From the IMG/VR virus record IMGVR_UViG_3300029982_000012: DNA of 64,000 bases. One strand, written 5' to 3'. The notes below the pieces were generated by a model. It saw only the letters and a program-made list of their open reading frames with translations. It had not been told where the DNA came from and searched no databases. This stretch comes from a virus. Positions 29,499 through 52,037 of this stretch are shown here, one piece after another (within the stretch, counting starts at the first letter, position 1; each line of letters opens with the position of its first letter). The position numbers and the translations under genes are program-made.

Positions 29499-29573
29499 TT
29501 TCCATTTTCCTTAACCTAGAATCATGACCCATGCCATGAAGCTGATGTAGTTAAGATTGCTTGTAATTAATTG

Positions 29574-29933: not shown

Positions 29934-29948
29934 ATTTATAAGATTGGA

Positions 29949-30614
29949 CTAAGAGATAAGCTTATTTCCTTTAGAGACATTCTCGTGTCCCGTTAAGATC
30001 TGCAGATTCCAAGGAACATGAAGACCTCTTATATTCTTACCCTGAATAGGAACAATATGGTCTACATGATAAGAAATTCCGGTAGTTTTACTTAAGTCGT
30101 TTGCTTTTATGTAAAAATTCTCTATTTCCATTAATTGATCTGCCGTTAACCATTTAGGAGTGGCTTCAACCTTTAAAGCTCGACGTTTAGCGATCCTAGC
30201 GTTTTTTCTGCCCTGATTAAGCCTATCATATGTGGCGTTTCTATTATCTATTAATTTCTTGTTTTTAGCGTAATATACTGACATATATTCAGCTTTTTTT
30301 ATAGCAATTTTTTCTTTATTTTTTAGGCGATACTCTAGATGCTGTAGGGCAATTTTTTCCTTGTTTTTTAAGCGATATTCTGCCCTTTGGGAATTTATTC
30401 TTTTCTTATTTTCGTGTTGATAAATAGCATTTTTATTTAAGATTCCATCTTTGTTTTTCTTATAATGTATTGATTTATAAATCCTACAACATTCTTTACA
30501 CCAAGAATTCAATCCATCTTTCGTAGTCTTTAGCTTATCGAATTCCGATAGTGGCTTTACTAAATTACATTTTTTGTTAGAACAAGTCTTTAAATTAGGG
30601 TGAGCAATTGACAT
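29949..30614 (-). CDS. HNH homing endonuclease
   Basis: CxxxxC/CKEC, ATPKWLT, HVDHIVPIQG...GLHVPWNLQILTGHEN. Confidence 0.9.
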   Translation of the reverse strand: MSIAHPNLKTCSNKKCNLVKPLSEFDKLKTTKDGLNSWCKECCRIYKSIHYKKNKDGILNKNAIYQHENKKRINSQRAEYRLKNKEKIALQHLEYRLKNKEKIAIKKAEYMSVYYAKNKKLIDNRNATYDRLNQGRKNARIAKRRALKVEATPKWLTADQLMEIENFYIKANDLSKTTGISYHVDHIVPIQGKNIRGLHVPWNLQILTGHENVSKGNKLIS

Positions 30615-30651
30615 ATATCTAAGATTATATCATATTACAATGACTTACAAC

Positions 30652-30685
30652 AAAAAAGCCCCATATAATTAAATATATGGAGCTT
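30652..30685 (-). terminator. intrinsic terminator after tail tube
   Basis: CCATAT/ATATGG stem with GGCTTTTTTG on the minus strand; near-twin of the post-MCP terminator. Confidence 0.7.
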
Positions 30686-30710
30686 AAATATTAAATATTT
30701 TAATATCCGA

Positions 30711-31244: not shown

Positions 31245-33395
31245 TTATGAAGCAGATTGTGTAACTGCACTAAGAGCAAGATTGATTGCTACGAAGTAAA
31301 TGCTGGTTGTTAATTTTGCTTCCACATTCACATACATTGAGGGAGCCGTAATTTGGATACTTGCATTCTTGTATCCAAGTGGCGCATCACTTGAAGTGGT
31401 AGTCATTTTCAGTTTTTTGTAATAATCAAAACGTTGTTGCAGGAAACTTAAAGCTGAAGCAGCAGAAACGTCCGCTACAGACTTACCAACGATCGCAGTT
31501 TGGAAACTTTGTGCCAAGTCAAGAGATAAAATATCAGAAAGATAAACTGATTGAATTGAATTGTATACAAAGTTTTGGTCGAGTCCGTAAGTAGTTTGAT
31601 CTGATACCCAAAGAATGCCTGAAGTGTTTTGAGCAAGAACTAAAAGTCCTGCAGTCAAAGCATCAGAAACATCATCTGGATCACCAGAGTTATAACCAGC
31701 AGGATCTTGGAACGAAATTGCGTTCGTCAAATGATTGCAAATTGATTTGTAGAAACCTGCAGTCTGCATCCCAGCAGCCAAACAAGCAGCATACCAAGGC
31801 AAGAACAAGGTACTATTACCCAAAGAGTTAATTTGTGTAACTTGCTGACAAGTCAAATCACAACGATAACTTGCAAGTTCTTGAGCTTGAACTTTGCAAT
31901 TTGCATAAGTATCGTTGATCGATAAAATTGCAGTACGATTGCGTTTCAAAGTAGGAGTTGAATATTGAATACAATGAGATTTTAGCAATTCATTGATCGC
32001 ATTAATCGTATAGGTAGAAGATGGAGAAGTATTGCCAGCAGCGATGTCAGCAGTTGCATCTTGAGAAAATAAAGGAACAATAATGTTCACTTGAATTCCA
32101 GCAAATTGGGCAATTGCATTCACGATATCAGCAGCGAGAGTCGGTCCGAGCAATCCACCTGAAAGATAAGCAAGAGCAGCAGGATCTGGAAGACCAGCAA
32201 CTGCCGTTGAAGTAAAGTTAACCGCAGTAGAGGTTGAGAGAGCGGCTTCGAAAGCAGCAACAGAGTTTTTGATACGACCTGGCTGAACATCTGCGGTAGA
32301 AGCGATCCCAAGAGCAGTTACTTGATCTAAAGCAGAAGTAGGATTTGAATTTACTGAAGAATTGTAACTAGCCGAATAACCTGGTTGAGAATTAATGTAG
32401 GCCGCAAGTTGACCAATAGTGGTGAATTGATTTAATTCTATAGATAAATTTGCTCCAATTCCACCAGTTACAGTAGTAGTTAATGTAGTAGCATTAATGG
32501 TAACAGTTGCAGTTGTTCCTTCATAGCCCATAGAAAGAGCGATTACTGGAGAAATATTAAGAGTCTCATTAAGACCAGTGCTAGAATTAACGATTTGAAC
32601 TTCAACCGCTGGTTCATCCGAAGAAGTATAGAGACCTGAAGAAAATCCTAATGCAGCCAAATCACCTGGAGTCGAATCGATTAACTCAAACGATTTTCCG
32701 AATCCTTCGCTATAAGCAGCAGCATCGGCTGGAAGACTGATAGAAACAGTATTTGGAGCAGTTCCAGGAGCAGCAACTAAAGTTGTAGCCATTGCTGTGA
32801 AAGTAGCATTTAATGAAGTTACCAATGTCGCAACGTTAGTAATTGTTCCTGTAGGAGTAATTACTATGGAAGGACCACCATTTACCCGAACAGTAAAAGT
32901 AGCACCAGAAAGACCACTGTATGAAGTGATAGTATTTCCGGTAATGGTTGGAGCAACTTCAGCTTGAAGTGCGGTAGTGGTGTAACTATATTGATTTCCA
33001 CCGGATCCATAGTTTGAAGCAACTAATGTCCCATAAGTAGAAGCAGAATGGGTCAACATGAAAGCAGATGCTTCACGACCTCTATTTGTTTTACAGATAT
33101 AAATTGAAGATGGAGCACCGGTAATATCTGGATCATTGCTTGAAGCACATAAAGCTGCGAAACCATCAACGATTGGACCTGAACCATAAATACTTCTAAC
33201 GGTATTTAAGGCAGAAGGACCAAAAAAGTTATTGGCTAATGTTGTAACGGTATAATCAGGACCCGCACTAGCTTCGCCCATGATGAGGACGACACCTGAG
33301 GTAGCCAAGCCAGATGCATTTGAAATCACCTGAGTGTTGGTATAGGCACCTGGGACATTTGTGTTTAACCACGGAGTAACAATTCTTTGTGACAT
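31245..33395 (-). CDS. tail sheath protein
   Basis: 716 aa; N-terminal VPGAYT...LIMGEA..GP and C-terminal sheath pattern (DQTTY...NSIQ). Confidence 0.9.
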   Translation of the reverse strand: MSQRIVTPWLNTNVPGAYTNTQVISNASGLATSGVVLIMGEASAGPDYTVTTLANNFFGPSALNTVRSIYGSGPIVDGFAALCASSNDPDITGAPSSIYICKTNRGREASAFMLTHSASTYGTLVASNYGSGGNQYSYTTTALQAEVAPTITGNTITSYSGLSGATFTVRVNGGPSIVITPTGTITNVATLVTSLNATFTAMATTLVAAPGTAPNTVSISLPADAAAYSEGFGKSFELIDSTPGDLAALGFSSGLYTSSDEPAVEVQIVNSSTGLNETLNISPVIALSMGYEGTTATVTINATTLTTTVTGGIGANLSIELNQFTTIGQLAAYINSQPGYSASYNSSVNSNPTSALDQVTALGIASTADVQPGRIKNSVAAFEAALSTSTAVNFTSTAVAGLPDPAALAYLSGGLLGPTLAADIVNAIAQFAGIQVNIIVPLFSQDATADIAAGNTSPSSTYTINAINELLKSHCIQYSTPTLKRNRTAILSINDTYANCKVQAQELASYRCDLTCQQVTQINSLGNSTLFLPWYAACLAAGMQTAGFYKSICNHLTNAISFQDPAGYNSGDPDDVSDALTAGLLVLAQNTSGILWVSDQTTYGLDQNFVYNSIQSVYLSDILSLDLAQSFQTAIVGKSVADVSAASALSFLQQRFDYYKKLKMTTTSSDAPLGYKNASIQITAPSMYVNVEAKLTTSIYFVAINLALSAVTQSAS

Positions 33396-33696: not shown

Positions 33697-34371
33697 TTAT
33701 CCTGGTAACTTTGGTTTTGACATTTGATGAATTTGATTCAAAGTAGCTTCATGAATACTTTTAGCGCCTTGTTTTGCTTCTGCCGCACCTTTAGGAGTAG
33801 AAAATTGTGCATTGCGAACCATATTTCCGGCTTCGCTCATTCCGCCACTACGACCGTTATTTCCGGTTTGATTAATACCAGTTTGATTTTGATTGCTTTC
33901 AGTTGTTGCGCGAACATTACCGGTTTTTCCACTCATTTTAGAAGCATCTTCACTGAGTACGCCTTTACGAGCTTCTTCACTTTTATCCATCTCTTTAGAC
34001 TTTTGACCTTTTTTGTGCTCCATGCGTCCCATAAACTTAGCCAGCTTAATGTGACCTCTCATTTGTGGCTCTGCATGTGCTGGATCTGAATTCTTCTCTT
34101 CATGTTCCTGAACATCTTGCTCTACTTTTTCACCAAGGTCCGCATCTGCTTTTGCATCAGGATTTTGCCCTTGTTCATCGGATTTATTCATTTTTGCTTT
34201 AATAGCGCCATCGATTTTGTCGGCACTCTCTTCAGAATAGCCTTCACGTTTCAATTTGGAATGAATTTTAGCCCAATCCCCTTTAGCTAGGCTAGAGGAT
34301 TTATAGAGTTCTTCGGCTTTTTTAAGAACTAAAACAGCCGCCTCTTGTGGAGTAAATTTTTTATCTGACAT
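33697..34371 (-). CDS. putative internal head protein
   Basis: Hydrophilic; repeated LYKSS/LAKGD/MNKSD/MDKSE sites; N-terminus paralogous to 35130-35453. Confidence 0.55.
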   Translation of the reverse strand: MSDKKFTPQEAAVLVLKKAEELYKSSSLAKGDWAKIHSKLKREGYSEESADKIDGAIKAKMNKSDEQGQNPDAKADADLGEKVEQDVQEHEEKNSDPAHAEPQMRGHIKLAKFMGRMEHKKGQKSKEMDKSEEARKGVLSEDASKMSGKTGNVRATTESNQNQTGINQTGNNGRSGGMSEAGNMVRNAQFSTPKGAAEAKQGAKSIHEATLNQIHQMSKPKLPG

Positions 34372-34406: not shown

Positions 34407-35124
34407 TCAATCTACAATAGTATTCATCTCTATTAACTTATTGTTTTTATTAATCTTTATTTTTTGCATATCCATAATTGTCTTTTTTCTATGATCTTCT
34501 TTCCAAAGAGGCTGCAAATTAGTGTAATGACATAAAGATTCCAGTTCTTCGATAGTTTTGGCCATAGCCAACGGTATTATATGGTCTATATCCCACAAAT
34601 CTCTATTTTCCCATGACATGTTACCCCTAAATAGCGACTGTATATAGCTAAATGCCTCTTCTATGGAACATCCAAGCATTTTAAGGGTTTTTTTGAGATT
34701 TATCTTTCCCCCTAAAAGCTGCTGAAGTTCGAGACCTTAAATTGGATTCAAAATTGAATAATTTATCATTCTTTCTACGATTTTTTATGTACTGACCCTG
34801 ATAGCTAACCCTTTCTTTTTTATGGTATAAGTAATAATCGTTCTGATAATCAATCCTTTGCTCCTTATGGGCTCCATAGTATTTATTGGCGTCTTCTTTT
34901 ATCTTTTGGGCATTTTCTAAACGCCAAGCTTTATGGTATTCTTTTTGTTTTTCTTTATGTAACTCTCTGTATTTCAATATCTTTTTTATATTTTTCTTGT
35001 AACTTTTCTTGCCGCTAATCTTTCTGCAAGGTTTACATCTATCCTGTAATCCGTTAGGACGAGTAGAATTATGGCCAAATTCTTGGTTTTCTTTAATTGA
35101 TTTACACTTATAGCATTTGGTCAT
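34407..35124 (-). pseudogene. HNH endonuclease split by a 1-nt frameshift in an A7 run
   Basis: Removing one A of CAAAAAAACCC (~34688-34694) joins ...KSQKTLKMLGCS...WDIDHIIPL...HYTNLQPLW. Confidence 0.75.
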
Positions 35125-35129
35125 ATATA

Positions 35130-35453
35130 TTATTTTTTGTTTTTTGCGTTTTTCAAAAAAAGTTCCAGTTTATCAATTCCATTATTATGATTGGATTCTG
35201 ATTTCCCCATTTTTCCATAAAACACGCTAGGCTTGTCCATCGCACCACCCAATTTCTTGGGTTTGGCCGTCTTTACAACCGCTTGGGATCCAACCTTCAT
35301 TGGACTGGCAGTGTTGCTGTTCGTAGGGCTTACAACCCCAGGAACCGGCGTTAATTGGGTTTGCTTTAAGCCGCCGATAGCAGATTTCACCAATTCTTCT
35401 GCTTTTTGTAGAACGATTACAGCCACTTCTTCTGGAGTGTATTGCTTAGGCAT
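35130..35453 (-). CDS. putative internal head protein
   Basis: MPKQYTPEEVAVIVLQKAEELVKSA; MGKSE. Confidence 0.5.
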   Translation of the reverse strand: MPKQYTPEEVAVIVLQKAEELVKSAIGGLKQTQLTPVPGVVSPTNSNTASPMKVGSQAVVKTAKPKKLGGAMDKPSVFYGKMGKSESNHNNGIDKLELFLKNAKNKK

Positions 35454-37308: not shown

Positions 37309-37518
37309 TTAACCTTTTATAGGTACTCCATTTGGACCTAAGACTCTACCCTCTTTCATATCGATGAAACGGACTCGACCGTTTTCGTCCGTAATCTTCT
37401 TCTGGCCCTTTCCATTGACGCCACCCTCAGGAATAGGATTTGCGGCAAGATGAGTAGTGGTATGTTTTGCAGATAGTTTGCTAGCAGGAATGGGTCCGGC
37501 TAGCCCTGATTTTTTGGG
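37309..37518 (-). CDS. -1 frameshift extension of the mCpol protein (~65 aa, no own start codon)
   Basis: C CCA AAA slippery site; -1 frame KSGLAGPIPASK...GRVRFIDMKEGRVLGPNGVPIKG* ends 1 nt before the next ATG. Confidence 0.75.
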   Translation of the reverse strand, partial: PKKSGLAGPIPASKLSAKHTTTHLAANPIPEGGVNGKGQKKITDENGRVRFIDMKEGRVLGPNGVPIKG

Positions 37519-39539
37519 TCTGGGGCGGCACCCTCCATAGGAGCCGCTTTTTGTTGCATAGGTGCTGGTTTTGGAGGAGACTGTTGTTGAGCAGGCGCAG
37601 TAGGTGCAGGCGCTGAATTAGGAGATGTAGGCGATGGTTCAAGGCCTAGTAATTTACAAAGTTCAATCATTGATTTTAACATTTGAATACAAGAAGTGTA
37701 CAGGCCTTCATTTTGCTCTCTTGTGGCCTCCAACGATTGCTTATTGGCTTTAAATTGTTGAAGAGTTTGCGATACCATATTAACAACTTTTTCTCGTTGT
37801 ATCTGATCTTGATTGTCTTGTAATCCACCTTGCAGAACACCCATCATATCTGGTTGTTCATCACCACCTTGTGAATCGCCCATGACCTGTTCTTCTCCAG
37901 GCATAGGGCTATTAGGATCACTAACTGCTTGTGTATCTTGCTGAAAATCCTGATCTTGGTCTGAAATATTTTGTTTTTGTGCGTCTCCAAAATTCGACTT
38001 CACAGAAACATTGTCTTTCATTGCATCGCCTTGCGGCATCTCAGTATTATCTATTTGTCCGGCTTCCTGAGTAGGATCTGCATTTCCTTGACCAGGTTCT
38101 TGATCTAGTAAATTAAGTACTTCTTCAGCCGTTTCGTGTCCTTGCAAATTAGGGTCTTGTTGGCCATTTTGTGCTGGATCGCTTTCAACTGCATCTCCAT
38201 ACATTTCTTGACACTGAGGGCAATTTTCTGGGTGTTCTGCTCCCATGTCTTGAGCTTCTACATTTGATTGGTCCTGATCATACTCAGCACACCAAGGACA
38301 GTCACATGTGTCCTCGTGTTGTGGATTTGCTTGAGATCCAGTAATATTTTCTGTTTGACAATAAGGACAATCATCAATGTGACCGGTTTCTTGATTAGAC
38401 TGGTTGTATTCTTGACAAGCGGGGCAGTCATCGTGCATACCGGCAGTGCCGTCAGCATTTTCTTGTGCGTCAAGATCTTGACAAAAAGCGCAATCATCTG
38501 TACGGTCATCTTCATTATCGTGATTGTGTTCTTCAGCATCTTCATCGTTTTTATGGATATCGCAAAGCTTGCTTTTGTGTAAGTTACAATATTTTTCGGA
38601 TTTCTTATGATCCAGCATGTGGTTGTCCAAATGACGAGCAGTGGCGCTTATGGCCGATGCCTTTTCATGTAGCCCTTTTGCGTGGTCTTCATGTCTTTTT
38701 TGATTTCCTTGTCTCCACGCCTGTCTTTTTTCTGGATTTGCATTTATTTCTTTGTCCCTAGCCCAATCATCAGAACTTTCATGTCCAGTTTCAATAGGGG
38801 TTGTAGCAGTAGAGTAGGCTCTATGCATATCATGCATTGCCTGGTGCCCTTCTTGATGGGGGGTACCCCTACCTTCATTCCATGCAATTTTTTCATGTTG
38901 TCGTGCTAATCTAGAATGAGTAGGAGAATCCAGCCCCATCATTCCTTCATGGGTAAGTTTGGGCTTGCTATCCCCTAATTTAGGCCCTCTAGGTTTTTTG
39001 GTAGCAGTTTTCTTGTCCACCAATTGAGCATCCGCTTTATGTAAATTACATAGTCCCATAAGTTCACTCTTTTCCAGATAGGCCTCAGCAAGTTTATATT
39101 CCTCTTGTGTTGCCCTTTTTTCTCTGACTCTTCTTTTGGCTTTTTTAATATCTTCTTTGATATATTTATTGAAATAAACAATTCTATTTTTGCCACGAAG
39201 TTTCGCAACCAATAGGGCGGTGCCAGCCTCTGAAAGATTTTTCCCTACTCCAGCAGAAATAGTGTACCCAAATGATTTTTCGACACCGCTTCTTAATTCT
39301 TTTATTTTCTTTCTAGACTCTGGAGGAATAGCCATTGTAGCTTCATCTCCACCACCAGAAATTTTTGCTCCGTCATTTTGCTTGCACCAATGATCAATAT
39401 ATGCTTGGGCCGCATCAATACGGCCAGAAACTTTATGTAGTTCTTCAACATCGTTAGCAATTACGGCCCGACCTACTAGTTTTCCAATGCCATCACCATC
39501 GACAGCTATGTATAGCATCCCTGGCTTAATCTTTTCCAT
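37500..39539 (-). CDS. mCpol/GGDEF-like nucleotide cyclase domain fused to His-rich, CxxC-repeat and acidic regions; putative internal virion protein
   Basis: YIAVDGDGIG...ISGGGDE...TISAGVGKNLSEAGTALLVAKLRGKNRI in aa ~8-124. Confidence 0.75.
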   Translation of the reverse strand: MEKIKPGMLYIAVDGDGIGKLVGRAVIANDVEELHKVSGRIDAAQAYIDHWCKQNDGAKISGGGDEATMAIPPESRKKIKELRSGVEKSFGYTISAGVGKNLSEAGTALLVAKLRGKNRIVYFNKYIKEDIKKAKRRVREKRATQEEYKLAEAYLEKSELMGLCNLHKADAQLVDKKTATKKPRGPKLGDSKPKLTHEGMMGLDSPTHSRLARQHEKIAWNEGRGTPHQEGHQAMHDMHRAYSTATTPIETGHESSDDWARDKEINANPEKRQAWRQGNQKRHEDHAKGLHEKASAISATARHLDNHMLDHKKSEKYCNLHKSKLCDIHKNDEDAEEHNHDNEDDRTDDCAFCQDLDAQENADGTAGMHDDCPACQEYNQSNQETGHIDDCPYCQTENITGSQANPQHEDTCDCPWCAEYDQDQSNVEAQDMGAEHPENCPQCQEMYGDAVESDPAQNGQQDPNLQGHETAEEVLNLLDQEPGQGNADPTQEAGQIDNTEMPQGDAMKDNVSVKSNFGDAQKQNISDQDQDFQQDTQAVSDPNSPMPGEEQVMGDSQGGDEQPDMMGVLQGGLQDNQDQIQREKVVNMVSQTLQQFKANKQSLEATREQNEGLYTSCIQMLKSMIELCKLLGLEPSPTSPNSAPAPTAPAQQQSPPKPAPMQQKAAPMEGAAPDPKNQG

Positions 39540-40572
39540 TTGTTTTCCTCAAAGTGTCCAGGAGCATTTGAATATTTTCTTTATCCCAACCACGAGAAAA
39601 TCTTATCTGAATACTTTCTTCTGATTTCTTAATCCAAATTTTGCTATACTGATCTTGGCCATAGCACAAACAACAAGAAAAAGACCCTTGGCCAAAAATG
39701 GTTTGTCCGCAATCAGGGCAGTTGATAGTTTCGGATTTAGCAATTTCAATTCTATGTTCTTTTGGTTTTTTCTTTCGTTCCAAAAATGCTTTTAATGGAG
39801 AACCTTTTTCGGGAGACTCTTCTTTTTTGGCCATATCTTCTGCCTTAAAATCCAATTTTTTTTTAGGTGCTTCTGCAAAATTGGGCTCTTTATTATTTGC
39901 AATTGAATCGGCAACTTCCATGCCATTAGCCATTCCCTGGAAATACTCACCCGACTGCGCAGATTGATGGGCAATTTTTGTTACATCCGAAATCTGTTCA
40001 TTTTTCTTATGTTCTTTGGCTAAAGCTTCATTGAGCCTATCCATCATAAGTTTATTAAGAGCGTCTCTTTCAGAAATTTTATTCTCAACTACGCGACTAA
40101 CCAAAGAATGAAGTTCCATTCTTGCATCGATCAATTTTTGTATTTTGGCTTCAGCATGTTCCGTTGGCTCAATAGTCTCTTTTTCTAATTTTTCTAATTC
40201 GTAAAGTTCGAATGTAGATAGTAGGATGATACCAAGTCCAGGAATTGATCTATTTTGAAAACTGTAAACTAATTTATTGTTGTCATAGACAGATCCCGTA
40301 TAGTCATCGGCAGCATTCTTGTTTGCACTAACACGAGCGTTTTTGCCAAATGGAAGTTGAAGTTCTATACTGGTATTGAGTGGCATCGGTGTCAAAGCGC
40401 TAATGAGCAATGACATGACAAATCTTGGAACCACCTTCAACCCAATACGAATCTCTTCAGGGTCCAATACAGAATTGGATCCGATCTTGTATAGATCTGC
40501 AGATTTAGCTAAAGATTGTAGAAAATCTTCATCTAAAATCTTATTAAGAGATAGGTTGTGTATTGTTTGCAT
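39526..40572 (-). CDS. putative head-associated protein with C-terminal Zn ribbon
   Basis: CPDC...CCLC; LAKSA, IAKSE, IKKSE sites. Confidence 0.55.
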   Translation of the reverse strand: MQTIHNLSLNKILDEDFLQSLAKSADLYKIGSNSVLDPEEIRIGLKVVPRFVMSLLISALTPMPLNTSIELQLPFGKNARVSANKNAADDYTGSVYDNNKLVYSFQNRSIPGLGIILLSTFELYELEKLEKETIEPTEHAEAKIQKLIDARMELHSLVSRVVENKISERDALNKLMMDRLNEALAKEHKKNEQISDVTKIAHQSAQSGEYFQGMANGMEVADSIANNKEPNFAEAPKKKLDFKAEDMAKKEESPEKGSPLKAFLERKKKPKEHRIEIAKSETINCPDCGQTIFGQGSFSCCLCYGQDQYSKIWIKKSEESIQIRFSRGWDKENIQMLLDTLRKTNGKD

Positions 40573-41011
40573 TTTGTTGTGCGTATGGTCCTGTTTCTTG
40601 TGCGATCCTAGTAGGGTCTTCCATTATGTAAACTAAAAGGGTATTGGCGCTAGTATACACATACTGATTGTTCCCCGCAGATAAATAGGTCCATGCATTT
40701 GGAGGGCATGCTACTCCAACATTACCATTTGCATCTGTTGCACCGGCTGCTAAGGCGGTGATTGTAGAACTCCCAATAGTAACTGACCCCAAAGTACCGT
40801 TATTGTAAATTGCAAGATTTGCGCCAAGAAATGGAAGTGCCACTTTTGCAGAAGCATCAGTTGTATACCCACCAGCGATTTGGATTGGCAGAAGTCTAGG
40901 TCCAACCGTAAGCGATTTTTGTCCACCAGACGATGGATTGTATTCAACAACCTTAATTTGGTCTGGATCCTGTAAAGAATTGTTGTCTATTACCCGGTTA
41001 TTTTTTGCCAT
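40544..41011 (-). CDS. putative virion protein
   Basis: Late motif and GAGG SD upstream; beta-rich. Confidence 0.5.
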   Translation of the reverse strand: MAKNNRVIDNNSLQDPDQIKVVEYNPSSGGQKSLTVGPRLLPIQIAGGYTTDASAKVALPFLGANLAIYNNGTLGSVTIGSSTITALAAGATDANGNVGVACPPNAWTYLSAGNNQYVYTSANTLLVYIMEDPTRIAQETGPYAQQNANNTQPIS

Positions 41012-41053
41012 AAAAGTCCTCTATTGCTATATATCACTATAAGATTGCTAAGT

Positions 41054-42010
41054 TTAGTCCGTTCCAAGGTCATCTTCCGAAATGTTTACCATATCGACAC
41101 TAATGGACCCAGGGCCTGGTTTAATTGAATCCAGGGGCTCTTGGACTGCCCTATTTGGGGTTTTCGATTGGGATTGATTCTTGGGATCAGGTCTATTTTG
41201 AGAGTGGTAGACATACTCGCGTTGAATTATAGCGTAATAGGCCATTCTTTCGGGAACCCTAACGCCACCTTCAGTTACGTTACTCATTCTAACTTCTTTA
41301 GGGATTTCAACTACATAGTGGTATGCTTTATACAAATATCTTATTGAATAGACATTCCCTTTACCTGTTTTTGGATCAAAACCTGGATTCTTACCGCCAT
41401 CCATCCAATTAATACTACCATCACTACTTACGCAGTAATCAAGTCCTTGAGAATATTGATTATTTTTACTATCTATAATCGGAACTTCAAGTTGAATAAT
41501 TGGGAACATGGGGACATTTGGTCCAACTTCATATGTCATTTTTTGATAGTACGATACGCTTACATTGGCAACAGGATCAGAAACATAAAGCCTATCTCCA
41601 GGAGCTAAATATATCCTATTTCCATCATCGACTGGGGCTCCATTAACCTGCACTCCTACAGATTTCGCTTTATTGTAAAATCTTGGTAAAATTAATCTAC
41701 TAACGGATGGATCTACTATGCCGCCATCGGTTCTTGTTTTTTTAGTATCGTTTTCTACTTCACAAGCAGTAAATACCCCAGCACAAAAGTAAAGCATTCC
41801 ATTTGATGTCAATACATCAAGTCCATCACGTCTATAATCGCCACGATCCTTTAGGCCAATAGGAGAAGGCATAGCTTTCCAATGACTGTAGTCAATTCCT
41901 TGTCCTGTGACAAAGGCATCGTCGCTTATTAAACTGAATGAGGTTTCAACTAGAGGGCACCACGCATTGATGGCCTGAAGTTCTTCCCCTTTTGGGGTTC
42001 TATTGCTCAT
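41054..42010 (-). CDS. putative head closure / neck protein
   Basis: Position and YSIRY...YVVEIPKEVR pattern similar to SPO1-like neck proteins. Confidence 0.5.
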   Translation of the reverse strand: MSNRTPKGEELQAINAWCPLVETSFSLISDDAFVTGQGIDYSHWKAMPSPIGLKDRGDYRRDGLDVLTSNGMLYFCAGVFTACEVENDTKKTRTDGGIVDPSVSRLILPRFYNKAKSVGVQVNGAPVDDGNRIYLAPGDRLYVSDPVANVSVSYYQKMTYEVGPNVPMFPIIQLEVPIIDSKNNQYSQGLDYCVSSDGSINWMDGGKNPGFDPKTGKGNVYSIRYLYKAYHYVVEIPKEVRMSNVTEGGVRVPERMAYYAIIQREYVYHSQNRPDPKNQSQSKTPNRAVQEPLDSIKPGPGSISVDMVNISEDDLGTD

Positions 42011-42362
42011 TTACTTTCCTTAACAAGCCGTTACTTATTTCTTCTAATTTCTTATCTGTTTTGTCGTACATATTAACTAAATTTTTAACTATCTCATTTA
42101 CTTCGAAATTTTGTTTTATTTTTTCTAGATGTCTTTCCATCTTAAAACCTTCTAGATTATTATTTGCTTTAAACTTAAAGTCCAATTTGCAACTAGTTCC
42201 ACTACTGCAAAGCCTGTCCAATTCTTTTAAGAAAAATGGAATTTTAGAATCCATAGGGCTATAACTTACAAAAACCTCTTTAGCGCCAACGATCTGGCGT
42301 TCCAAAGGCTCATTTGGATCAAATTCATGTTCGTGATCACTACAAATAATTTTAACGCACAT
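42000..42362 (-). CDS. hypothetical protein
   Basis: Operon-coupled. Confidence 0.5.
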   Translation of the reverse strand: MCVKIICSDHEHEFDPNEPLERQIVGAKEVFVSYSPMDSKIPFFLKELDRLCSSGTSCKLDFKFKANNNLEGFKMERHLEKIKQNFEVNEIVKNLVNMYDKTDKKLEEISNGLLRKVNEQ

Positions 42363-42363
42363 A

Positions 42364-42858
42364 TTATAAGACCTTTACACCTTTCAACCCAGAACCTAGG
42401 GCTTTTTCGCTAACTGCGCCACTGATACCAGAAACGAACTCTTTTGGCAGCTTGTAAGCATCAATTACAAGTTGGTTATTTTTAATAGAAGAATTTATAG
42501 TAGCGACCTTAATGTTTAGTTTGGTAACATAAAAATCTACGCTATTACCTTCTTGTACAGAATAAATATCGTGTCCAGATTTACGGAGATCTTCTGTTAA
42601 AAAATGAGAATGACTTTCAGCGCTGAATTTCAAGCCTTCACTTTTCATAATTGGTGGATGATAGTTTGGAAATTTTTGTTCGATTGAATAGCAGAGAATC
42701 GCACGGTGAGAAGCCGCCCCAAGCACAGTATCTTGACCTTTATGGTCGGTCACTGTAGCTAAATTTAAGCCACCTTTAGTACACACCAATTTTACTTGAT
42801 TGCCGTCGATTGTTCCAAATGGTTCTGTAGAGGAGATATCATTTTCTGAGATTTTCAT
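42364..42858 (-). CDS. putative internal head protein (start MKISEND)
   Basis: ATG 1 nt after the upstream stop; IMKSE and LRKSG sites. Confidence 0.5.
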   Translation of the reverse strand: MKISENDISSTEPFGTIDGNQVKLVCTKGGLNLATVTDHKGQDTVLGAASHRAILCYSIEQKFPNYHPPIMKSEGLKFSAESHSHFLTEDLRKSGHDIYSVQEGNSVDFYVTKLNIKVATINSSIKNNQLVIDAYKLPKEFVSGISGAVSEKALGSGLKGVKVL

Positions 42859-42859
42859 A

Positions 42860-43984
42860 TTACTTTTCCTTACTGTACGCATCTCTAATCTTTTTGACAT
42901 AGGGATGATTTGAAATAGAATTTGCATTGTTCTTCTTGGTACCAGTTATACCTTGATTCCAAGCAAAAGCCGTTTGATCGGGGTTATTTTTAAAATTGTG
43001 CTCTATGTGGGCTAGATGACGATCTGCTATTATTTCTTCAAGACCTTTGTTATCCTGCATAAATCTGTGCAATTGAGGACCCTTTAATGTCAGGGCCTTC
43101 CCATATTTTGCTTGAAGGTCCTTGTGTCCCTTAATAGTATCTGTAATGGTGTTAGGCATTAAAGCCCATTTACCATAAGCCTGACCTTGAGAAGTAGGAG
43201 CGTGGTTTGTATTTTTCCCACCACTTGATTCTACTTGCATGATAGCATTTAGCATTTTTTTGTGATCGTAATTATTTTGATGGGCTTGCATGTCGGGAGA
43301 ATTTTTGATATTCGAAGTATGATTAGTGCCTCCAGCTAGCGCTGCTGCCATGCCCAATCCTATACCGACATTTTTTAGTGCGCCTTTTTCTAGGACTTGT
43401 TCGGACTTATTGACGGATAATTTTGCGGTATAGTCGCTCTGATCAGGAAATTGGGGTTCAGCACTATCTGATTGATGATGGTAGGTTTTTAGCCTCTTAG
43501 GACCCTTTTTCAATTCTGCATTACCAAATTCAATTCCTGCTTCCTTTGCGGTTTTAGCGCCAGAGGATTTAATTTTGTCATGCATATCTTTAGGAACACT
43601 GATATGGGGTGCCCATTCACGTTGTTCAGGAAGTCCCATATGTGCAAATTTACCATGATGCTCTTTCATTTTCTCTGCAGAATTACCTTTTAATGTAATG
43701 ACAAAAACATCCGATCCATTACGATCTTTAAATTGGTTTGGTTCTATCTGAGTATTTTTTGCATCAGGAGGATTCAATGGAAGGTGTTTGGCCATGTTAT
43801 GAATTTCGTGAGCGTGATCTTTATTTGCGTCGAATTCTTTGATGGTAGAATGGTATGGGATACCATTATCTGACCTACAATCTTGACCATTAATCTTTAC
43901 TGGATATAGTAAAATCAACCCTTTATTGGCTTGTTCAGCATATTGGGCAGGATTTTCAGATTTATTTATTAAATTACATTCCAT
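42860..43984 (-). CDS. 2H phosphoesterase (Acb1-like) - lytic transglycosylase fusion, putative internal virion protein
   Basis: PYHSTI and APHISV (two HxT/S motifs); AIMQVESSGG...AYGKWALMPNT...AWNQG (SLT motifs). Confidence 0.75.
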   Translation of the reverse strand: MECNLINKSENPAQYAEQANKGLILLYPVKINGQDCRSDNGIPYHSTIKEFDANKDHAHEIHNMAKHLPLNPPDAKNTQIEPNQFKDRNGSDVFVITLKGNSAEKMKEHHGKFAHMGLPEQREWAPHISVPKDMHDKIKSSGAKTAKEAGIEFGNAELKKGPKRLKTYHHQSDSAEPQFPDQSDYTAKLSVNKSEQVLEKGALKNVGIGLGMAAALAGGTNHTSNIKNSPDMQAHQNNYDHKKMLNAIMQVESSGGKNTNHAPTSQGQAYGKWALMPNTITDTIKGHKDLQAKYGKALTLKGPQLHRFMQDNKGLEEIIADRHLAHIEHNFKNNPDQTAFAWNQGITGTKKNNANSISNHPYVKKIRDAYSKEK

Positions 43985-45397: not shown

Positions 45398-45507
45398 TTT
45401 AAATACCTCAAAAAAAGTAGTTCTCTAACTTATAAGATTGCATAAAAAGCTTGAAAAAGACATTTTTCGTGTTATTATCTATTCTACAATCATAGAAGGA
45501 GATTTAA

Positions 45508-46131
45508 ATGCTTAAAGTAGAATTCGAAGGTACAGATGGCGCAGGAAAGACAACCGGCCTTAAATATTTCATTGAACAGGCCAAGAAACGTGGTTTTTCA
45601 GTAACCGAAACCCGCGAAGTGGGCAATCCGCATATTCCAGCATGTGTGAAAATGCGGGAATTAGTTCTTGACCCAAATAGTAACCTAAGCGGCGAAGCAA
45701 TGGAGCTTGTTTTTTCCGCAATGCGATTCGAAAATGATCGATGGTTAAAAACGGTAAATTCACAGTTAGTCGTATCTGATCGTGGATGGTTGAGTCATCT
45801 TGCCTATACCGATCATAATGTGGACGAAGATTTTACTAAGAATCTTTATGAGCGTTTTGTAGGACTTGAAACCCAGTTACCCGGCGCAGTTATTTATTTT
45901 GATGTTAGTACAGATACAGCCCTTAAGCGTCGCAATAATCGTGGCACTTCCGATGTTATTGAGATGAAAGGTGTACCTTTTCAAGAGAAAGTTCGATCTT
46001 CTTTCGAAAAACATCTTAATCAATATGGACAGTTCATGAAAGTATTTCGAGTTAATGCGAATGGTACTATTGACGAAGTACGACAAGAACTAGACGGTAT
46101 TCTAGATAAGATCGCAACACTACCCCTATAA
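45508..46131 (+). CDS. tmk: thymidylate kinase
   Basis: FEGTDGAGKTT P-loop, TRE, VVSDR. Confidence 0.95.
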   Translation: MLKVEFEGTDGAGKTTGLKYFIEQAKKRGFSVTETREVGNPHIPACVKMRELVLDPNSNLSGEAMELVFSAMRFENDRWLKTVNSQLVVSDRGWLSHLAYTDHNVDEDFTKNLYERFVGLETQLPGAVIYFDVSTDTALKRRNNRGTSDVIEMKGVPFQEKVRSSFEKHLNQYGQFMKVFRVNANGTIDEVRQELDGILDKIATLPL

Positions 46132-46659
46132 GACTTTTCTACTTTTATGACGATTTTCGGATCTAGTAATAACTCTTAGATTCCAAGGTACATGAAGACC
46201 TTTTCTGTCTTTGCCCATAACAGGTTCTATATGATCGACTTCATGTGGTATTCCGGTACTTTGTGTTAACTTTGCAGCTTCTATATAAAAAATCTCTATT
46301 TGGGTCCAATGATCTTCTGTCAACCATTTAGGTGTAGCGGCTCTTTTTTGGGCACGTCTCCTAGCAGTCTTTGCGTTAGATTTTCCTGGATTATTTTTCC
46401 TGTATTCCTGATCGTATATTTTTAATTTTTCTTTCCTTCTTAATGTCTGAACTGCACGTTTTTGTGATGCTAACACAGGATCTTTTTCTTTTTTTGCTCT
46501 TCTTCTTAAACGGATCTTTTCTAGGTTTTCTTTTTGCCATTCCCTTGAATCGGAGTTATGACATTTTTTACAGATAGCTCTAAGTCCATCTTTACCAAAT
46601 TTGGCTTTTCCAAAATCTTTGAATTCTTTATTTTCTTTACAAGCAGTACAGGCCTTCAT
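46126..46659 (-). CDS. HNH homing endonuclease
   Basis: ATPKWLT...HEVDHIEP...GLHVPWNLRVITRSEN. Confidence 0.9.
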   Translation of the reverse strand: MKACTACKENKEFKDFGKAKFGKDGLRAICKKCHNSDSREWQKENLEKIRLRRRAKKEKDPVLASQKRAVQTLRRKEKLKIYDQEYRKNNPGKSNAKTARRRAQKRAATPKWLTEDHWTQIEIFYIEAAKLTQSTGIPHEVDHIEPVMGKDRKGLHVPWNLRVITRSENRHKSRKVL

Positions 46660-46766: not shown

Positions 46767-48170
46767 TTAGGTGAAAAGTTGTCCTTGAAGATTTTCAACG
46801 ATAGCGTTCTTACGTGGAGCTTCTACTGCGAGAGTAGTCCAACGATAGAAAGCGTTATTGATTGACAATTGACTAATACCTAATTGGATTTTTTTGAATC
46901 CGCTTAGCTCACCTAAATGCATCGTGTCTTTTTGAATCAAGAAACCGGTTAAAGCACCTGGAGCCAAGTTACCAAGGTCGGTGAAAGTAGCACCGCTTGG
47001 AAGAGCAAGAATATTACCGATAAAGAGTGGTCCTGGAGCAACGTTTGCAGCCACACCAGCAGCAGTACGATAAACGCGGTAGTAAAGAGCACCGGCAACT
47101 GCACCGATAGCAACTGATACTTTATTTCCAGCGAGAGCAGGAGTAACAGTTGTTACAGCAGAAGTTGGGCCTTCGCCGAAAGCGTTAACTGCAGCAGCTT
47201 GGTAGCTATAAGCAGCAGCTTGGAGGAGTGATCCAGCAGCGCCACCGTCAGTAGCAGTTGCTGTTGGAGCAGCAGGAGCGCCTACGATAGATTGGTTGAT
47301 AGGGCTAATTTGCTTACGCAAGTACTGAGACATTTCCATGGTGATTGCACCGCTAGAAGTCCATTGAGTACGTAAGTGAGAACCAGTAGCTTCTTGTGGG
47401 CTACCAGCAAGAACGATACGTTCTTTAGCTTGGCTAATTTTGTTGTAAGCAGAGAGAGAAGAAGGATCAAGCATAAGTTTGTCAGCGCGACCCATGTTAA
47501 GGGCAGAACGAACTGAAATATCTTCAATCAATGATTGGGTGAGGGCTGCGCCACCTGCAGAGAACACTACAGTTGCACTTGAACCGTATGATGCGAACAT
47601 GAGATCTTGTCCATTGCGCTCATAGTCAGAAGCACGAACTTGAAGATCAACACCGCGCATATTTGGCAATGCAGGTACTAACGCTGGGTTACCATCGAAA
47701 ACACCTTGGTTAGAGAAATCTGAGTTACCTGCGAAAAGGTCGAACTCGATATCTTGAGCCAAGTTAAGAGCTGCGTCTTGTGCTTGGCGCTCTTCAGCAG
47801 AAACTTTATCGAAAGTTTCAACTGCGTTAGCTACCAGTGAATGCTCACGAGTATCAACGTAGTAAGCCATTGGAATTACGAGACGAGCTGCTTGACCAGT
47901 CTTTTTGGCTCCGAGCATACCTTCGTATGCAGCAGATCCACCGAAACGACCTACAGACAACTTGCGGTTGTACTGATAAAGGTTGCTTTTTGCAGGACGA
48001 CTGTCCAACATTTTTTGCAATTTGATGGTTTCTTCAGCAGCAGTCACGTTTACCATAACTGGCGCTAAATCTTCGATTTGGTAAGCTGCACCTTGTACTA
48101 AAGTACTAGGGGCTGCATTATAACTGCCTGCTTCCAATGCTTTCATGAGGCCCTGAAGTTGTTCTAACAT
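46767..48170 (-). CDS. major capsid protein
   Basis: 467 aa, strongly biased codons, MKALEAG...GAAYQIEDL N-arm like Herelleviridae MCPs, strong terminator. Confidence 0.9.
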   Translation of the reverse strand: MLEQLQGLMKALEAGSYNAAPSTLVQGAAYQIEDLAPVMVNVTAAEETIKLQKMLDSRPAKSNLYQYNRKLSVGRFGGSAAYEGMLGAKKTGQAARLVIPMAYYVDTREHSLVANAVETFDKVSAEERQAQDAALNLAQDIEFDLFAGNSDFSNQGVFDGNPALVPALPNMRGVDLQVRASDYERNGQDLMFASYGSSATVVFSAGGAALTQSLIEDISVRSALNMGRADKLMLDPSSLSAYNKISQAKERIVLAGSPQEATGSHLRTQWTSSGAITMEMSQYLRKQISPINQSIVGAPAAPTATATDGGAAGSLLQAAAYSYQAAAVNAFGEGPTSAVTTVTPALAGNKVSVAIGAVAGALYYRVYRTAAGVAANVAPGPLFIGNILALPSGATFTDLGNLAPGALTGFLIQKDTMHLGELSGFKKIQLGISQLSINNAFYRWTTLAVEAPRKNAIVENLQGQLFT

Positions 48171-49878: not shown

Positions 49879-50379
49879 ATGAAAAATTGCACCAATTCCC
49901 TATGTGAACAAGAAAATCCTCAATCTTTTGATAGTTTCTATAAAAAGAAAAACGGGAAATTTGGTCTTTTGGGAAGATGTAAAAAATGTGCCAATAAACA
50001 GACAGATGCTTGGGTTGCTAAAAACAAACAAAAGAAACGCGAATCCGCAAAAAGATGGATAGATGGAAATAAAGAAAAGCACTTAAAAAATAGCAGAAAT
50101 TGGTCCAAAAACAACCCAGGCAAAAGAAATGCGCAAACCATGAGACGAATTGCCGCCAAGAAACAAGCCACACCACCATGGCTAACACATGAACAACATA
50201 AGGAAATAGAAATTATTTACATTAAGTCCTCTACCCTAACACAAGAAACGGGAATACCCCATGAAGTCGATCATATACTTCCTTTACAGGGTAAAGAAGT
50301 ACGAGGTCTACACGTACCTTGGAATCTTCAAATAGTGACCAGATCTACAAACAGAAAGAAAAATAATGCCATAATATAA
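49879..50379 (+). CDS. HNH homing endonuclease
   Basis: ATPPWLT...HEVDHILPLQG...GLHVPWNLQIV. Confidence 0.9.
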   Translation: MKNCTNSLCEQENPQSFDSFYKKKNGKFGLLGRCKKCANKQTDAWVAKNKQKKRESAKRWIDGNKEKHLKNSRNWSKNNPGKRNAQTMRRIAAKKQATPPWLTHEQHKEIEIIYIKSSTLTQETGIPHEVDHILPLQGKEVRGLHVPWNLQIVTRSTNRKKNNAII

Positions 50380-50399: not shown

Positions 50400-52037
50400 A
50401 TGTCAACTTTTCTCCATGGTGTCGGAACTGTTCAATTTATAGATAAATCGGGAGAACTCCTTGATCTTAAAGGATTAAGTATAGATTCTCTCGAAAAGAC
50501 TGGCGTTATCAACTATGAACACAAGAGCGATGTGCCAGCCCAATTAGTTGGCAAGATATTGAAAGCAAAGAAGATTTTCTCAAAAAAAGACTGCGCAAAC
50601 GAACACGAACTCTATTTTTGGAAGAAAACCAAAACCCCATATTTATACATCATGGCCGAGTTGTTAGATGACTATTGCGATAGCGCAAAACACGTTGCAG
50701 GTATGTTGAGATACGACAGAGACAGAAAAGACCAAAACGAATACAATATTGTGTGGTTTAGTATTGAAGGCAGTGAAATCCCAAATACTAGAGTGGGCAA
50801 GTCCATTATTACAAGAGGTATTGCACGTAAGGTTACTTTGACTTCTGCACCATGTAATGCGGCAGCTGCAGTTGAAATTCTTGAAAACCAAGCACCAAAA
50901 ATTAAAGACGACTTTGATGAAATATTTAAAAGCGAACAAGAAGCTATCACTTTATTCAAAACGGGTGAAGGTGAAAAGTTGTACGAAACCTATTTAGCAA
51001 AAAAAGAAGCCGAAGGCCCAAGCACTGGCGGTAAGCCCCCAAAGAATCCCTACAATGAATATCAAAATAGCGGCACTAGAATTGGTAAAACAAAATCCGG
51101 TAAGACTGTTTGGTCTCACGGACACATTGGCGATTACAGTTTTAATCCTGCCGAACACCAAGAAGCTGCCGAACATCATGAACGGGCTTCTGTAATTTCT
51201 GAGAATCCAAAACTTGCTGATAACCACGCGCAACGTGCAGTTGCTCACGCTAATGCTGCTAAATCCGGTGGTCGTCAAGAAAATCGTGCAGCACTTTCTC
51301 TTAACCAAAAAGATAAGGTGGCTCAGGAGCAAGGAAAACAAGTGTCTAAAGCCGAATATTGTGAAAAACACAAAAAATTACAAAAAGCTGATGGACCAAA
51401 ATGGTCGGGACCAAAAGTAACTGGTGACGCCATACATTTTTCTCATCCAGAACACAATATCGTTAGTGTCCATAAACAGCCTTCTGGAGAATTTCACGTA
51501 AAACACAATGGTAGAGTTGCTGGCGTGGGTGGACAAAAAGGCGTATTCAATAATGCAAAAGATGCAGGGGCACACGCACAAAAATTCATGAGTGGGTTAA
51601 GTAGTGGTAAGATAACCGCTCCAGCGATGCAAAACCATCCATCACCTTCAATTATTGGCAATACATCTATCAAAAAAGCAATTACTGCTGGTAGTACGAA
51701 TGCAGCACCTTCAACTTTGGTAAATGGAGCTGCCTACCAAACAGAAAGTCTTGCTAAAGAACAATCTCCTTCAGAAGAACATAATTTTAAAGGCTCAAAA
51801 AAGAAAGACTGGAATTTAAGAGCCAAGCAAGATTACGAAAAATGGCCTCATAGGGAAAAGTTTGAGAAGTTCATGAAGTCAAAAATGCCTCACCTTTCTA
51901 AGGGTGAAATAGCAGCTTTTGGCAGAGTAATTGCACTCAAGAAGAATATCGAATTTGAAAATTCTTTAAGCGATCTAGTTGACTTTAATAAATCTGAAGA
52001 TGCTAAAAAAGTAATTGTATCAAATACAAAAAAGTAG
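50400..52037 (+). CDS. prohead (capsid maturation) protease with long C-terminal extension
   Basis: DKSGE, INYEH, VGKI, FSIEG, VTLTSAPCN motifs (HK97/herpes-type protease). Confidence 0.85.
   Translation: MSTFLHGVGTVQFIDKSGELLDLKGLSIDSLEKTGVINYEHKSDVPAQLVGKILKAKKIFSKKDCANEHELYFWKKTKTPYLYIMAELLDDYCDSAKHVAGMLRYDRDRKDQNEYNIVWFSIEGSEIPNTRVGKSIITRGIARKVTLTSAPCNAAAAVEILENQAPKIKDDFDEIFKSEQEAITLFKTGEGEKLYETYLAKKEAEGPSTGGKPPKNPYNEYQNSGTRIGKTKSGKTVWSHGHIGDYSFNPAEHQEAAEHHERASVISENPKLADNHAQRAVAHANAAKSGGRQENRAALSLNQKDKVAQEQGKQVSKAEYCEKHKKLQKADGPKWSGPKVTGDAIHFSHPEHNIVSVHKQPSGEFHVKHNGRVAGVGGQKGVFNNAKDAGAHAQKFMSGLSSGKITAPAMQNHPSPSIIGNTSIKKAITAGSTNAAPSTLVNGAAYQTESLAKEQSPSEEHNFKGSKKKDWNLRAKQDYEKWPHREKFEKFMKSKMPHLSKGEIAAFGRVIALKKNIEFENSLSDLVDFNKSEDAKKVIVSNTKK

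Follow-up and report, generated by a model that had tools for sequence, protein, structure and literature searches.

An mCpol cyclase domain and a 2H phosphoesterase in the virion gene block of uncultured relatives of Myxococcus phage Mx1

The 64,000-nucleotide stretch of virus DNA analyzed here (IMG/VR virus record IMGVR_UViG_3300029982_000012; "the window" below means this whole stretch) carries, between the genes for its major capsid protein (MCP) and its tail sheath, two genes whose products contain domains of nucleotide-signaling enzymes. One encodes a fusion protein of 679 amino acids (aa) that begins with an mCpol palm domain, the domain of the Panoptes protein OptS; the other encodes a 374-aa protein in which a 2H phosphoesterase domain is joined to an SLT lytic transglycosylase domain (Table 1). 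Both lie inside the virion gene block, as the original prediction had held when it placed them among head and neck genes, and their order is conserved in relatives. That prediction, made from the sequence of the window, had read the pair as a new system, a writer and an eraser of cyclic nucleotides delivered by the virion.

The mCpol fusion protein and its frameshift junction

The first 125 residues of the fusion protein are a genuine nucleotide cyclase domain with its catalytic motifs kept. The Pfam mCpol model (PF18182) matches aa 10 to 122 with 62.2 bits (E = 7e-17; cut-off, 26.4 bits), and a family profile built from 44 homologues retrieves the mCpol domain of Panoptes OptS from the PDB (9mnr and 9nwn) at an E value of ~1e-16. 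The AlphaFold2 (AF2) model, with a predicted local distance difference test (pLDDT) score of 89, superimposes on OptS 9pd0 with a Foldseek E value of 1e-8, TMt 0.86, a root mean square deviation (rmsd) of 1.8 Å, and 31% identity; GGDEF and Cmr2 palm domains rank after OptS. The mCpol-like synthase of the original prediction is thus borne out by the Pfam score, the profile, and the structure comparison alike. Residues D14-x-D16, G63-G64-D65-E66, K113, and G116-K117 are invariant in the 44 homologues, and the D-x-D and GGD[EQ] motifs are intact in all 28 metagenomic loci examined; they are lost in Mx1.

With OptS (PF18182; 9mnr, 9pd0, and 9nwn) the domain has in common the palm fold and its size, the D-x-D metal motif, a predicted symmetric dimer, and the state of a stand-alone palm without other Cas10 domains. 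Unlike OptS, it is encoded by a phage within a virion block as the N-terminal domain of an acidic coiled-coil protein of 400 to 1200 aa, it continues into an extra conserved helical extension of ~40 aa, its loop reads GGDE where that of OptS reads AADG, and it has no 2TM-beta or CARF-TM (transmembrane) effector partner. Modeled in two copies, it forms a symmetric dimer through the GGDE loop, with an ipSAE of 0.68 against 0.00 for the best control, a contact agreement of at least 88%, and a pLDDT of at least 83 (20 of 30 solved homodimers attain the mark for a dimer, as does 1 of 23 monomers). A solved OptS dimer exists, so the model possibly draws on memory, and it speaks for a likeness to the OptS dimer more than it proves one. 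By this modeling the domain is probably homodimeric.

A search of 1.84 billion representatives with the mCpol family gave 1377 matches, 395 of them at E < 1e-30, and in nearly all of the 1377 the mCpol domain is the N-terminal domain of a protein of 300 to 1200 aa. The fusion represents a large, undescribed phage family of at least 395 sequence clusters. No phage-encoded mCpol is reported in the Panoptes papers, recent reviews, or other literature searched. The phage domains score 63 bits against OptS and >150 bits within their own clade, which, judged from these sequences, is deep and phage specific and not a recent capture.

The helical extension that follows the palm domain has a conserved end, AYLEK[SA]E, which may be a domain boundary or a processing site. 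The remainder of the fusion consists of an acidic Cys-rich region with five CxxC motifs (aa ~315 to 560; 60 D/E against 8 K/R), then a coiled coil and a Pro/Ala tail. In the window, a lineage-specific basic, His-rich insert (aa 169 to 311) is bordered by duplicated KSE..CNLHK motifs; in most relatives the first of these motifs runs straight into the Cys-rich region, without an insert. Among relatives the cyclase domain is 75 to 90% identical and the tails ~50%, and in those lacking mCpol the acidic protein starts directly after the equivalent KSE site. The fusion may be seen as a cyclase mounted on an acidic, zinc-knuckle, coiled-coil tail, which some relatives carry without the cyclase.

The 3' end of the gene holds a frameshift signal. 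Five codons ahead of the stop lies the slippery heptamer C_CCA_AAA, a candidate −1 site, and a hairpin with a 6-bp GCUAGC stem begins 7 nucleotides (nt) past it. The 192-nt "gap" behind the gene is coding, being covered by a −1 open reading frame (ORF) that adds a C-terminal extension of ~66 aa and ends on the start codon of the gene that follows. All 27 loci compared conserve the extension peptide: 10 of them encode it in frame, another 10 in the −1 frame, and 7 in the +1 frame. A heptamer of the X_XXY_YYZ type, CCCAAA[AG], is present in 9 of the 10 −1 loci, including the window, and in these nine a hairpin whose sequence differs by locus follows 4 to 7 nt downstream. The seven +1 loci share CCCCACAG just before the zero-frame stop. 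In the relative L001, the recoding junction lies at 11620-11871, and a further 25 IMG/VR loci have it too. Across the family the gene appears to end in a conserved programmed frameshift, predicted to give two C-terminal forms of the protein.

Extension of the C terminus by frameshifting is characteristic of virion proteins, as in T7 10A/10B, the tail chaperone G/GT, and frameshift-added Ig-like domains, which supports a structural role for the fusion tail; by the same analogy, the extension would fit an external fiber as well as an internal protein. The candidate junction resembles T7 10A/10B, lambda G/GT, and the Ig-like extensions in its heptamer and downstream hairpin near the 3' end and in a predicted minor longer isoform, and, as with known structural-protein extensions, some relatives hold the extension fused in frame. 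It differs from them in that the gene is not one known for frameshifting and that a single junction is solved as 0, −1, or +1 according to lineage.

Immediately upstream, the gene of a 348-aa protein overlaps the mCpol gene by 14 nt. Its product combines an N-terminal domain of ~245 aa, without known family, with a C-terminal Zn-ribbon domain of ~100 aa. The N-terminal domain occurs in 22 of 24 mCpol-positive loci and is missing from both mCpol-less loci, which keep the Zn-ribbon part; searches gave no family match for it, and an Atlas search yielded no usable match. It is possible that this domain is a functional partner of mCpol.

The 2H/SLT protein and its cargo slot

In the AF2 model of the 374-aa protein (pLDDT 85), two well-folded domains are separated by a disordered linker (pLDDT <50). 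The N-terminal one, residues 21 to 172 (pLDDT >90), is a genuine 2H domain with intact catalytic motifs. Its two histidines, H45 in HSTI and H127 in HISV, are invariant in 61 homologues, and both motifs are found in 26 of 26 loci. The domain aligns to 2H enzymes with Z scores of 8.6 to 9.4 over 130 to 143 residues (rmsd, 3.2 to 3.8 Å), scores only moderately above the tool's background of 7 to 8. The 2H matches found by VIA-align are the plant cyclic phosphodiesterase (CPDase) 1jh6 (Z 9.4), the archaeal and bacterial LigT-like proteins 1vdx, 2d4g, and 5ldm, LigT, and rotavirus VP3, and the top Foldseek rows are the penguinpox cGAMP phosphodiesterase (PDE) 9ciw and the phage BCSR5 PDE 9q2g (Foldseek probability of 1.00 for 9ciw, 9q2g, and 2d4g). 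None of the Pfam 2H models, that of Acb1 included, is significant for the domain, which therefore represents a divergent subfamily. The Acb1 model PF23474 picks up just 2 of 61 family members (E 0.06), and the structure 7t27 matches weakly (TMt 0.44). A sequence search of the PDB with the 2H/SLT profile found no match.

The viral 2H PDEs, namely T4 Acb1, BCSR5 9q2g, penguinpox 9ciw, and the 2',5'-PDEs of rotavirus VP3 and coronavirus ns2, share with the domain the fold, the two HxT/S motifs, and the viral origin, and they are among its best structural matches. They are small, soluble early proteins, whereas the window domain is fused to SLT in a structural operon and, as said, has no significant sequence match to the family of T4 Acb1. 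The phosphoesterase with two HxT/S motifs named in the original prediction is real, and what that prediction missed is the SLT lytic transglycosylase in the C-terminal half of the same protein. This second domain (aa 238 to 374; PF01464, 23.9 bits against a cut-off of 21.3) has the goose-lysozyme-like fold and reaches Z 12 to Slt70, Cj0843, and MltE and Z ~9 to the T7 core protein gp16 (7eyb_I and 9jyy_I). It carries a VESSGG motif, and its catalytic Glu-Ser pair, E252/S253, is nearly invariant. Compared with T7 gp16 and other virion-borne lytic transglycosylases, the SLT domain is alike, and there is no homology outside SLT. The disordered linker contains the motif LEKGALKN and a Gly/Ala-rich, weakly hydrophobic segment resembling a signal-anchor-release (SAR) sequence. 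A strict transmembrane helix was considered for this linker and rejected, since hydropathy stays below 1.4 over 19 residues.

In all 23 relatives with enough upstream DNA, profile hidden Markov models detect a 2H domain 3.5 to 6 kb upstream of mCpol. The co-occurrence on which the original prediction had staked its paired system is thus found throughout, and it is conserved synteny within one phage clade, not independent co-occurrence. The relatives L028 and L029 have 2H/SLT without mCpol; in Mx1, the syntenic place is taken by an mCpol-like orthologue (WNM70340.1; profile E 2e-17) that has lost D-x-D and GGDE, and 2H is absent. A dedicated two-gene system is not supported by these genomes, and mCpol and 2H look instead like independent cargo modules, not an obligate pair. 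The partner of 2H varies among relatives, being a full SLT, a truncated SLT, GNAT (L001), or VTC+NUDIX+SLT (L029), and the syntenic 1479-aa protein of Mx1 (WNM70333.1) is composed of GNAT, ART-PolyVal, NUDIX, and SLT. Because relatives carry GNAT, VTC, NUDIX, or ART-PolyVal at the 2H position, this position would be a polyvalent-type cargo slot in which enzyme domains are exchanged. The 374-aa protein itself appears to be a small polyvalent-type protein with the hallmarks of an ejected virion protein, because its SLT domain is like that of T7 gp16, the domains at its slot are exchangeable, and ART-PolyVal stands there in Mx1.

Polyvalent proteins (PMC5512222) likewise hold unrelated enzyme domains in one polypeptide in a packaging or virion neighborhood; 2H and SLT both recur among them, and a cyclic-nucleotide-making GGDEF palm has already been noted. 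The window copy differs in being small, with two enzyme domains, and in not being fused to MuF or portal. Moreover, mCpol is not among the listed domains of polyvalent proteins, and here it belongs to another, scaffold-like protein, which has a frameshift of its own. The concept of a delivered writer and eraser is not new: in 2017, polyvalent proteins delivered from the head were already predicted to carry 2H domains as erasers and GGDEF or RelA/SpoT domains as writers (Iyer 2017; PMC5512222).

The structural block of Mx1 (L037, OR576727.2) also encodes a GGDEF-type cyclase (WNM70324.1; 17173-17904) beside the "putative prohead protease," a PI3/4-kinase/HipA-like kinase (28851-30710), and a protein with a weak S-adenosylmethionine-lyase-like match below the Pfam cut-off (37603-39282). 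These three are candidates for further virion cargo.

Genomic setting, late motif, and candidate processing sites

The window (G+C, ~38%) is part of an uncultured myovirus of ~167 kb that is kin of Myxococcus phage Mx1. The exact cluster of the 374-aa protein is recorded on contigs of up to 167 kb, and five IMG/VR relatives are complete genomes of 162 to 177 kb. No near DNA match exists among 50,697 cultured phage records, and searches of cultured phages at the DNA and protein levels brought up nothing close; only Mx1 surfaced, through the SLT part and the MCP. Mx1 is hence the closest cultured phage, with an MCP 46.5% identical over its full length, and the portal, MuF, sheath, and neck genes are collinear between it and the window. 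PHROGs gave no match for the mCpol-fusion or the 2H/SLT protein.

The structural block of the window occupies the minus strand from ~63.4 kb down to ~24 kb. The large terminase and portal genes are followed by that of a MuF-like protein, after which plus-strand genes for a methylase, ThyX, and a 545-aa protease-like protein are inserted; a 332-aa acidic scaffold-like protein is encoded between these and the MCP. Downstream of the MCP come, in order, genes for proteins of 157 and 314 aa, the 2H/SLT protein, proteins of 187, 120, 318, 155, and 348 aa, and the mCpol fusion, and then those for a 266-aa protein, a 344-aa terminator-like protein, five small proteins, the sheath, and the tube.

TABLE 1 Positions of genes, domains, and sequence elements in the window
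Feature	Position	Strand	Remark
Large terminase	61569-63437	-	
Portal	58913-60727	-	
545-aa protease-like protein	50400-52037	+	homologue of the N-terminal part of an Mx1 protein
Endonuclease VII/HNH-type gene	49879-50379	+	phrog_1035
MCP	46767-48170	-	
Endonuclease VII/HNH-type gene	46126-46659	-	phrog_1035
CAATCTTA	45433-45440	-	upstream of the operon 157 aa-314 aa-2H/SLT-187-120-318
2H/SLT gene	42860-43984	-	P0123; P0002 from upstream TTG
2H phosphoesterase domain, divergent	43469-43924	-	aa 21-172; H45 (HST), H127 (HIS)
LEKGALKN and Gly/Ala-rich SAR-like segment	43322-43378	-	
SLT domain	42863-43273	-	
CAATCTTA	41040-41047	-	upstream of the operon 155 aa-348 aa-mCpol fusion
348-aa protein	39526-40572	-	
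N-terminal domain of the 348-aa protein	39838-40572	-	
mCpol-fusion gene	37500-39539	-	P0001
mCpol palm domain	39165-39539	-	aa 1-125; Pfam, profile, and model
Helical extension	39045-39164	-	aa 126-165
Basic, His-rich insert	38605-39033	-	
−1 ORF	37309-37617	-	
Slippery heptamer, candidate −1 site	37512-37518	-	
Hairpin	37480-37504	-	
−1-frame C-terminal extension	37309-37511	-	
Set of 147-, 107-, and 224-aa proteins	34681-35124, 35130-35453, 33697-34371	-	
Sheath	31245-33395	-	
Endonuclease VII/HNH-type gene	29949-30614	-	phrog_1035

Three paralogous endonuclease VII/HNH-type genes split the structural block and probably encode homing endonucleases; in relatives, GIY-YIG genes occupy other sites of the same block. 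In L029, the 914-aa protein at the sheath position bears an ice-binding DUF3494 domain. Three relatives (P0026, P0075, and P0235) are deposited under metagenome-assembled genomes labeled Rhabdochlamydiaceae, and these labels are either a case of mis-binned phage contigs or a hint at the host.

The octamer CAATCTTA is present in 13 copies in the window (4.2 expected), and almost every copy lies closely upstream of a structural operon. Two of these copies precede the operons of the 2H/SLT and the mCpol-fusion genes. Such a distribution is consistent with a phage-specific late promoter element, and together with operon position it makes both genes candidates for late transcription.

K-[SA]-[ED] sites flank the 2H domain at aa 8 to 10 and 193 to 195 of the 374-aa protein, in disordered stretches, follow the mCpol domain at residues 157 to 159, 168 to 170, and 313 to 315, and number eight in the 332-aa scaffold-like protein. 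To this extent the sites described in the original prediction are in place. In a shuffle test, K[SAG]E occurs 6 times in the scaffold-like protein against 1.5 expected (p = 0.002). Two polyvalent relatives give 8 against 1.4 expected (L003) and 5 against 1.3 (L001), and none is found in 5252 residues of shell and tail proteins. A group-wise enrichment (26 against 7.6) was also seen in groups partly drawn after the hits had been seen, so that only the per-protein tests count. Five late proteins have K-[SA]-E within their first 26 residues, a placement reminiscent of the T4 leaders described below. Another motif, x-L-E-[KA]-[GSA], found once each in the MCP, the scaffold-like, the mCpol, and the 2H/SLT proteins, was not relied on, having been chosen after looking; the MCP-arm copy in the protease-like protein reads AITAGS, without the Glu.

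In T4, capsid-targeting leaders of roughly 10 aa are cut by gp21 after Glu. The short N-terminal leader MECNLINKSE in the window, which also ends in Glu, is similar to those of T4 head-packaged enzymes (Alt and internal proteins with cleaved leaders); T4 sites read L/I-x-E against K-[SA]-E in the window, and processing here is putative. The only protease candidate in the window for virion-protein processing is the 545-aa protein, a homologue of the N-terminal part of the 1239-aa "putative prohead protease" of Mx1. Within it lies a copy of the N-terminal arm of the MCP (aa 424 to 449 against MCP 14 to 39, 58% identical), a feature found in Mx1 as well, and this copy may be a means of docking the protease in the procapsid.

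Between the mCpol fusion and the sheath lies a set of three further proteins. The 147-aa member has a net charge of +25, and the 107-aa and 224-aa members share the N-terminal leader TP.E.AV.VL.KAEEL.KS, which ends K-A-E. All three are candidates for internal or DNA-associated virion proteins.

Possible roles of the two proteins and rival readings

We put at about even the chance that both proteins are virion-associated cargo, that the 2H/SLT protein aids wall entry and delivers the phosphoesterase, and that the nucleotide of the mCpol dimer perturbs host signaling. The structural block of the clade would then bear swappable enzyme cargo domains on structural or scaffold-like proteins, and both proteins would be built into, or loaded in, the virion. 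Cutting would take place at Glu-containing K-[SA]-E junctions, possibly freeing the mCpol dimer at its KSE junction. Both proteins would enter the cell with the DNA, the 2H/SLT protein helping the passage through the wall. Once there, the 2H domain would hydrolyze nucleotide immune messengers, or else RNA ends of the 2',3'-cyclic or 2'-5' type, with the mCpol dimer producing a nucleotide of the cyclic oligoadenylate type to disturb host signaling. An island of Myxococcus xanthus with a cyclic-oligonucleotide-based antiphage signaling system (CBASS) and a type III-B system stops phage Mx4 and not Mx1 (PMC11506125), an escape that is compatible with nucleotide-signal countermeasures in the clade without pointing to any one of them.

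Several findings weigh against this cargo reading. The Mx1 orthologue has lost its catalytic motifs, which means that an inactive domain can be retained. With cyclic-nucleotide PDEs, CPDases, and LigT all tied at Z ~9, the fold does not show the substrate of the 2H domain. The MCP, listed in the original prediction among the proteins with K-[SA]-[ED], has no such site, and the portal, also listed, has only three K-[SA]-D; K[SAG]E is not significant singly in the two focal proteins (p = 0.10 and 0.25), and distant relatives replace K-[SA]-E after the mCpol domain (AYL[KR]PE). A canonical prohead protease family was not found, PF03420 being silent in five complete relatives, with the control silent too, and the ClpP-like genes of relatives were not taken as the maturation protease, lying far from the head module. 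Furthermore, the Gly/Ala-rich segment and SLT could serve in lysis, as a SAR-type enzyme, and not in entry, and the acidic coiled-coil protein could be an external collar- or whisker-like protein, with the mCpol domain then not injected.

A rival reading, which we find rather unlikely, makes both proteins late cytoplasmic enzymes that are not injected and that would quench abortive-infection signaling set off by late structural proteins or serve phage-phage competition or lysis timing. In this view, the SLT half would act in lysis as a SAR-like enzyme, and the acidic protein would assist assembly or be a neck or whisker protein on the outside of the particle. The candidate late motif precedes both genes, the Gly/Ala-rich, weakly hydrophobic segment after Lys residues resembles a SAR anchor, and the coiled coil with its frameshift-added C-terminal domain, encoded near neck and terminator genes, resembles external fibers; in addition, no other endolysin was identified in the 64-kb window. 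However, the SLT gene sits inside a structural operon and not in a lysis cassette, and relatives swap SLT for GNAT or truncate its catalytic part with 2H kept, a pattern that cargo fits better than an essential endolysin. The Mx1 syntenic protein, moreover, has ART-PolyVal, a domain defined in head-delivered polyvalent proteins. The 2H domain might instead act on RNA ends, as a 2',3'-cyclic PDE, a 2'-5' ligase-like enzyme, or an RNase resembling Usb1, to heal or cleave RNA damaged by host anticodon nucleases, and be unrelated to mCpol. We regard this as unlikely: CPDase 1jh6 and the LigT-like structures lead the VIA-align matches, Usb1 appears in Foldseek, and the RNA-end role has been given as an equal alternative for polyvalent 2H domains (Iyer 2017; PMC5512222), yet the best Foldseek rows are the cyclic-dinucleotide PDEs 9ciw and 9q2g, though all scores tie, and no RNA ligase or kinase partner is seen in the same protein or in neighboring window genes.

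Panoptes is triggered when phage sponges or 2H PDEs deplete the product of its mCpol (PMC12657218, PMC12657230, and PMC13577387), and a phage mCpol could, as the original prediction supposed in replenishing the guard signal, act as a counter-guard, resupplying the constitutive decoy (2',3'-c-di-AMP or cA3) so that the host effector stays silent while the 2H enzyme of the phage, or sponges, remove the immune messengers of the host. The phage domain is a true OptS homologue with an intact active site and no effector partner, the loss it would make good is the very trigger of Panoptes, the authors of the Panoptes work expect a phage "anti-anti-anti-defence," and the literature searched holds no earlier phage mCpol. 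We nevertheless consider this role distinctly improbable. It presupposes Panoptes in the host, and mCpol and 2H vary independently. The phage product may also differ from that of OptS, because the clade is distinct (63 against >150 bits) and has GGDE against AADG; the phage's own esterase could destroy what mCpol makes, and the Mx1 copy is predicted to be inactive from its lost motifs. Still further down in probability, and very remote in our view, is a captured Panoptes-like bacterial defense module turned against competing phages. Other than here, mCpol is known from defense systems, but the operons contain no 2TM-beta, CARF-TM, or other membrane effector, hundreds of lineages carry mCpol as part of a structural-module protein, and a clade so deep and phage specific does not look like a recent capture. 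The original prediction had already argued that no cognate effector lies nearby, and it was right: among the 19 neighboring late genes which are structural genes that relatives conserve, there is no Pfam, CARF, or SAVED match and no strong transmembrane protein, although for the SAVED profile, which gave no match, the control was silent too. The absence of an adjoining CARF, SAVED, or transmembrane effector argues against a captured Panoptes operon, which was rejected on that ground.

Until now, the only known role of mCpol has been to make the signal of bacterial Panoptes guard systems. Here, no part of a virion-module protein family is better conserved than its catalytically intact mCpol; the family comprises at least 395 sequence clusters and occurs in complete phage genomes of ~160 to 177 kb. 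The interest of the finding rests on the size of this family, its catalytic conservation, and its experimental approachability; one member of the clade, Mx1, is in culture on Myxococcus xanthus, though its mCpol copy is degenerate. The conserved 0/−1/+1 junction, for its part, is a clean new case for recoding studies. In a bold and improbable extension, hundreds of phage lineages would load a defense-derived mCpol in or on their virions as a counter-guard, supplying or mimicking the decoy of Panoptes-type guard systems or jamming CARF/SAVED receptors from the onset of infection. If true, this would let a phage keep broad-spectrum nucleotide erasers such as 2H, and the 245-aa N-terminal domain that tracks mCpol could be its partner. 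If the phage mCpol is packaged and active, these phages would inject a second-messenger writer, a new layer in the nucleotide-signaling arms race.

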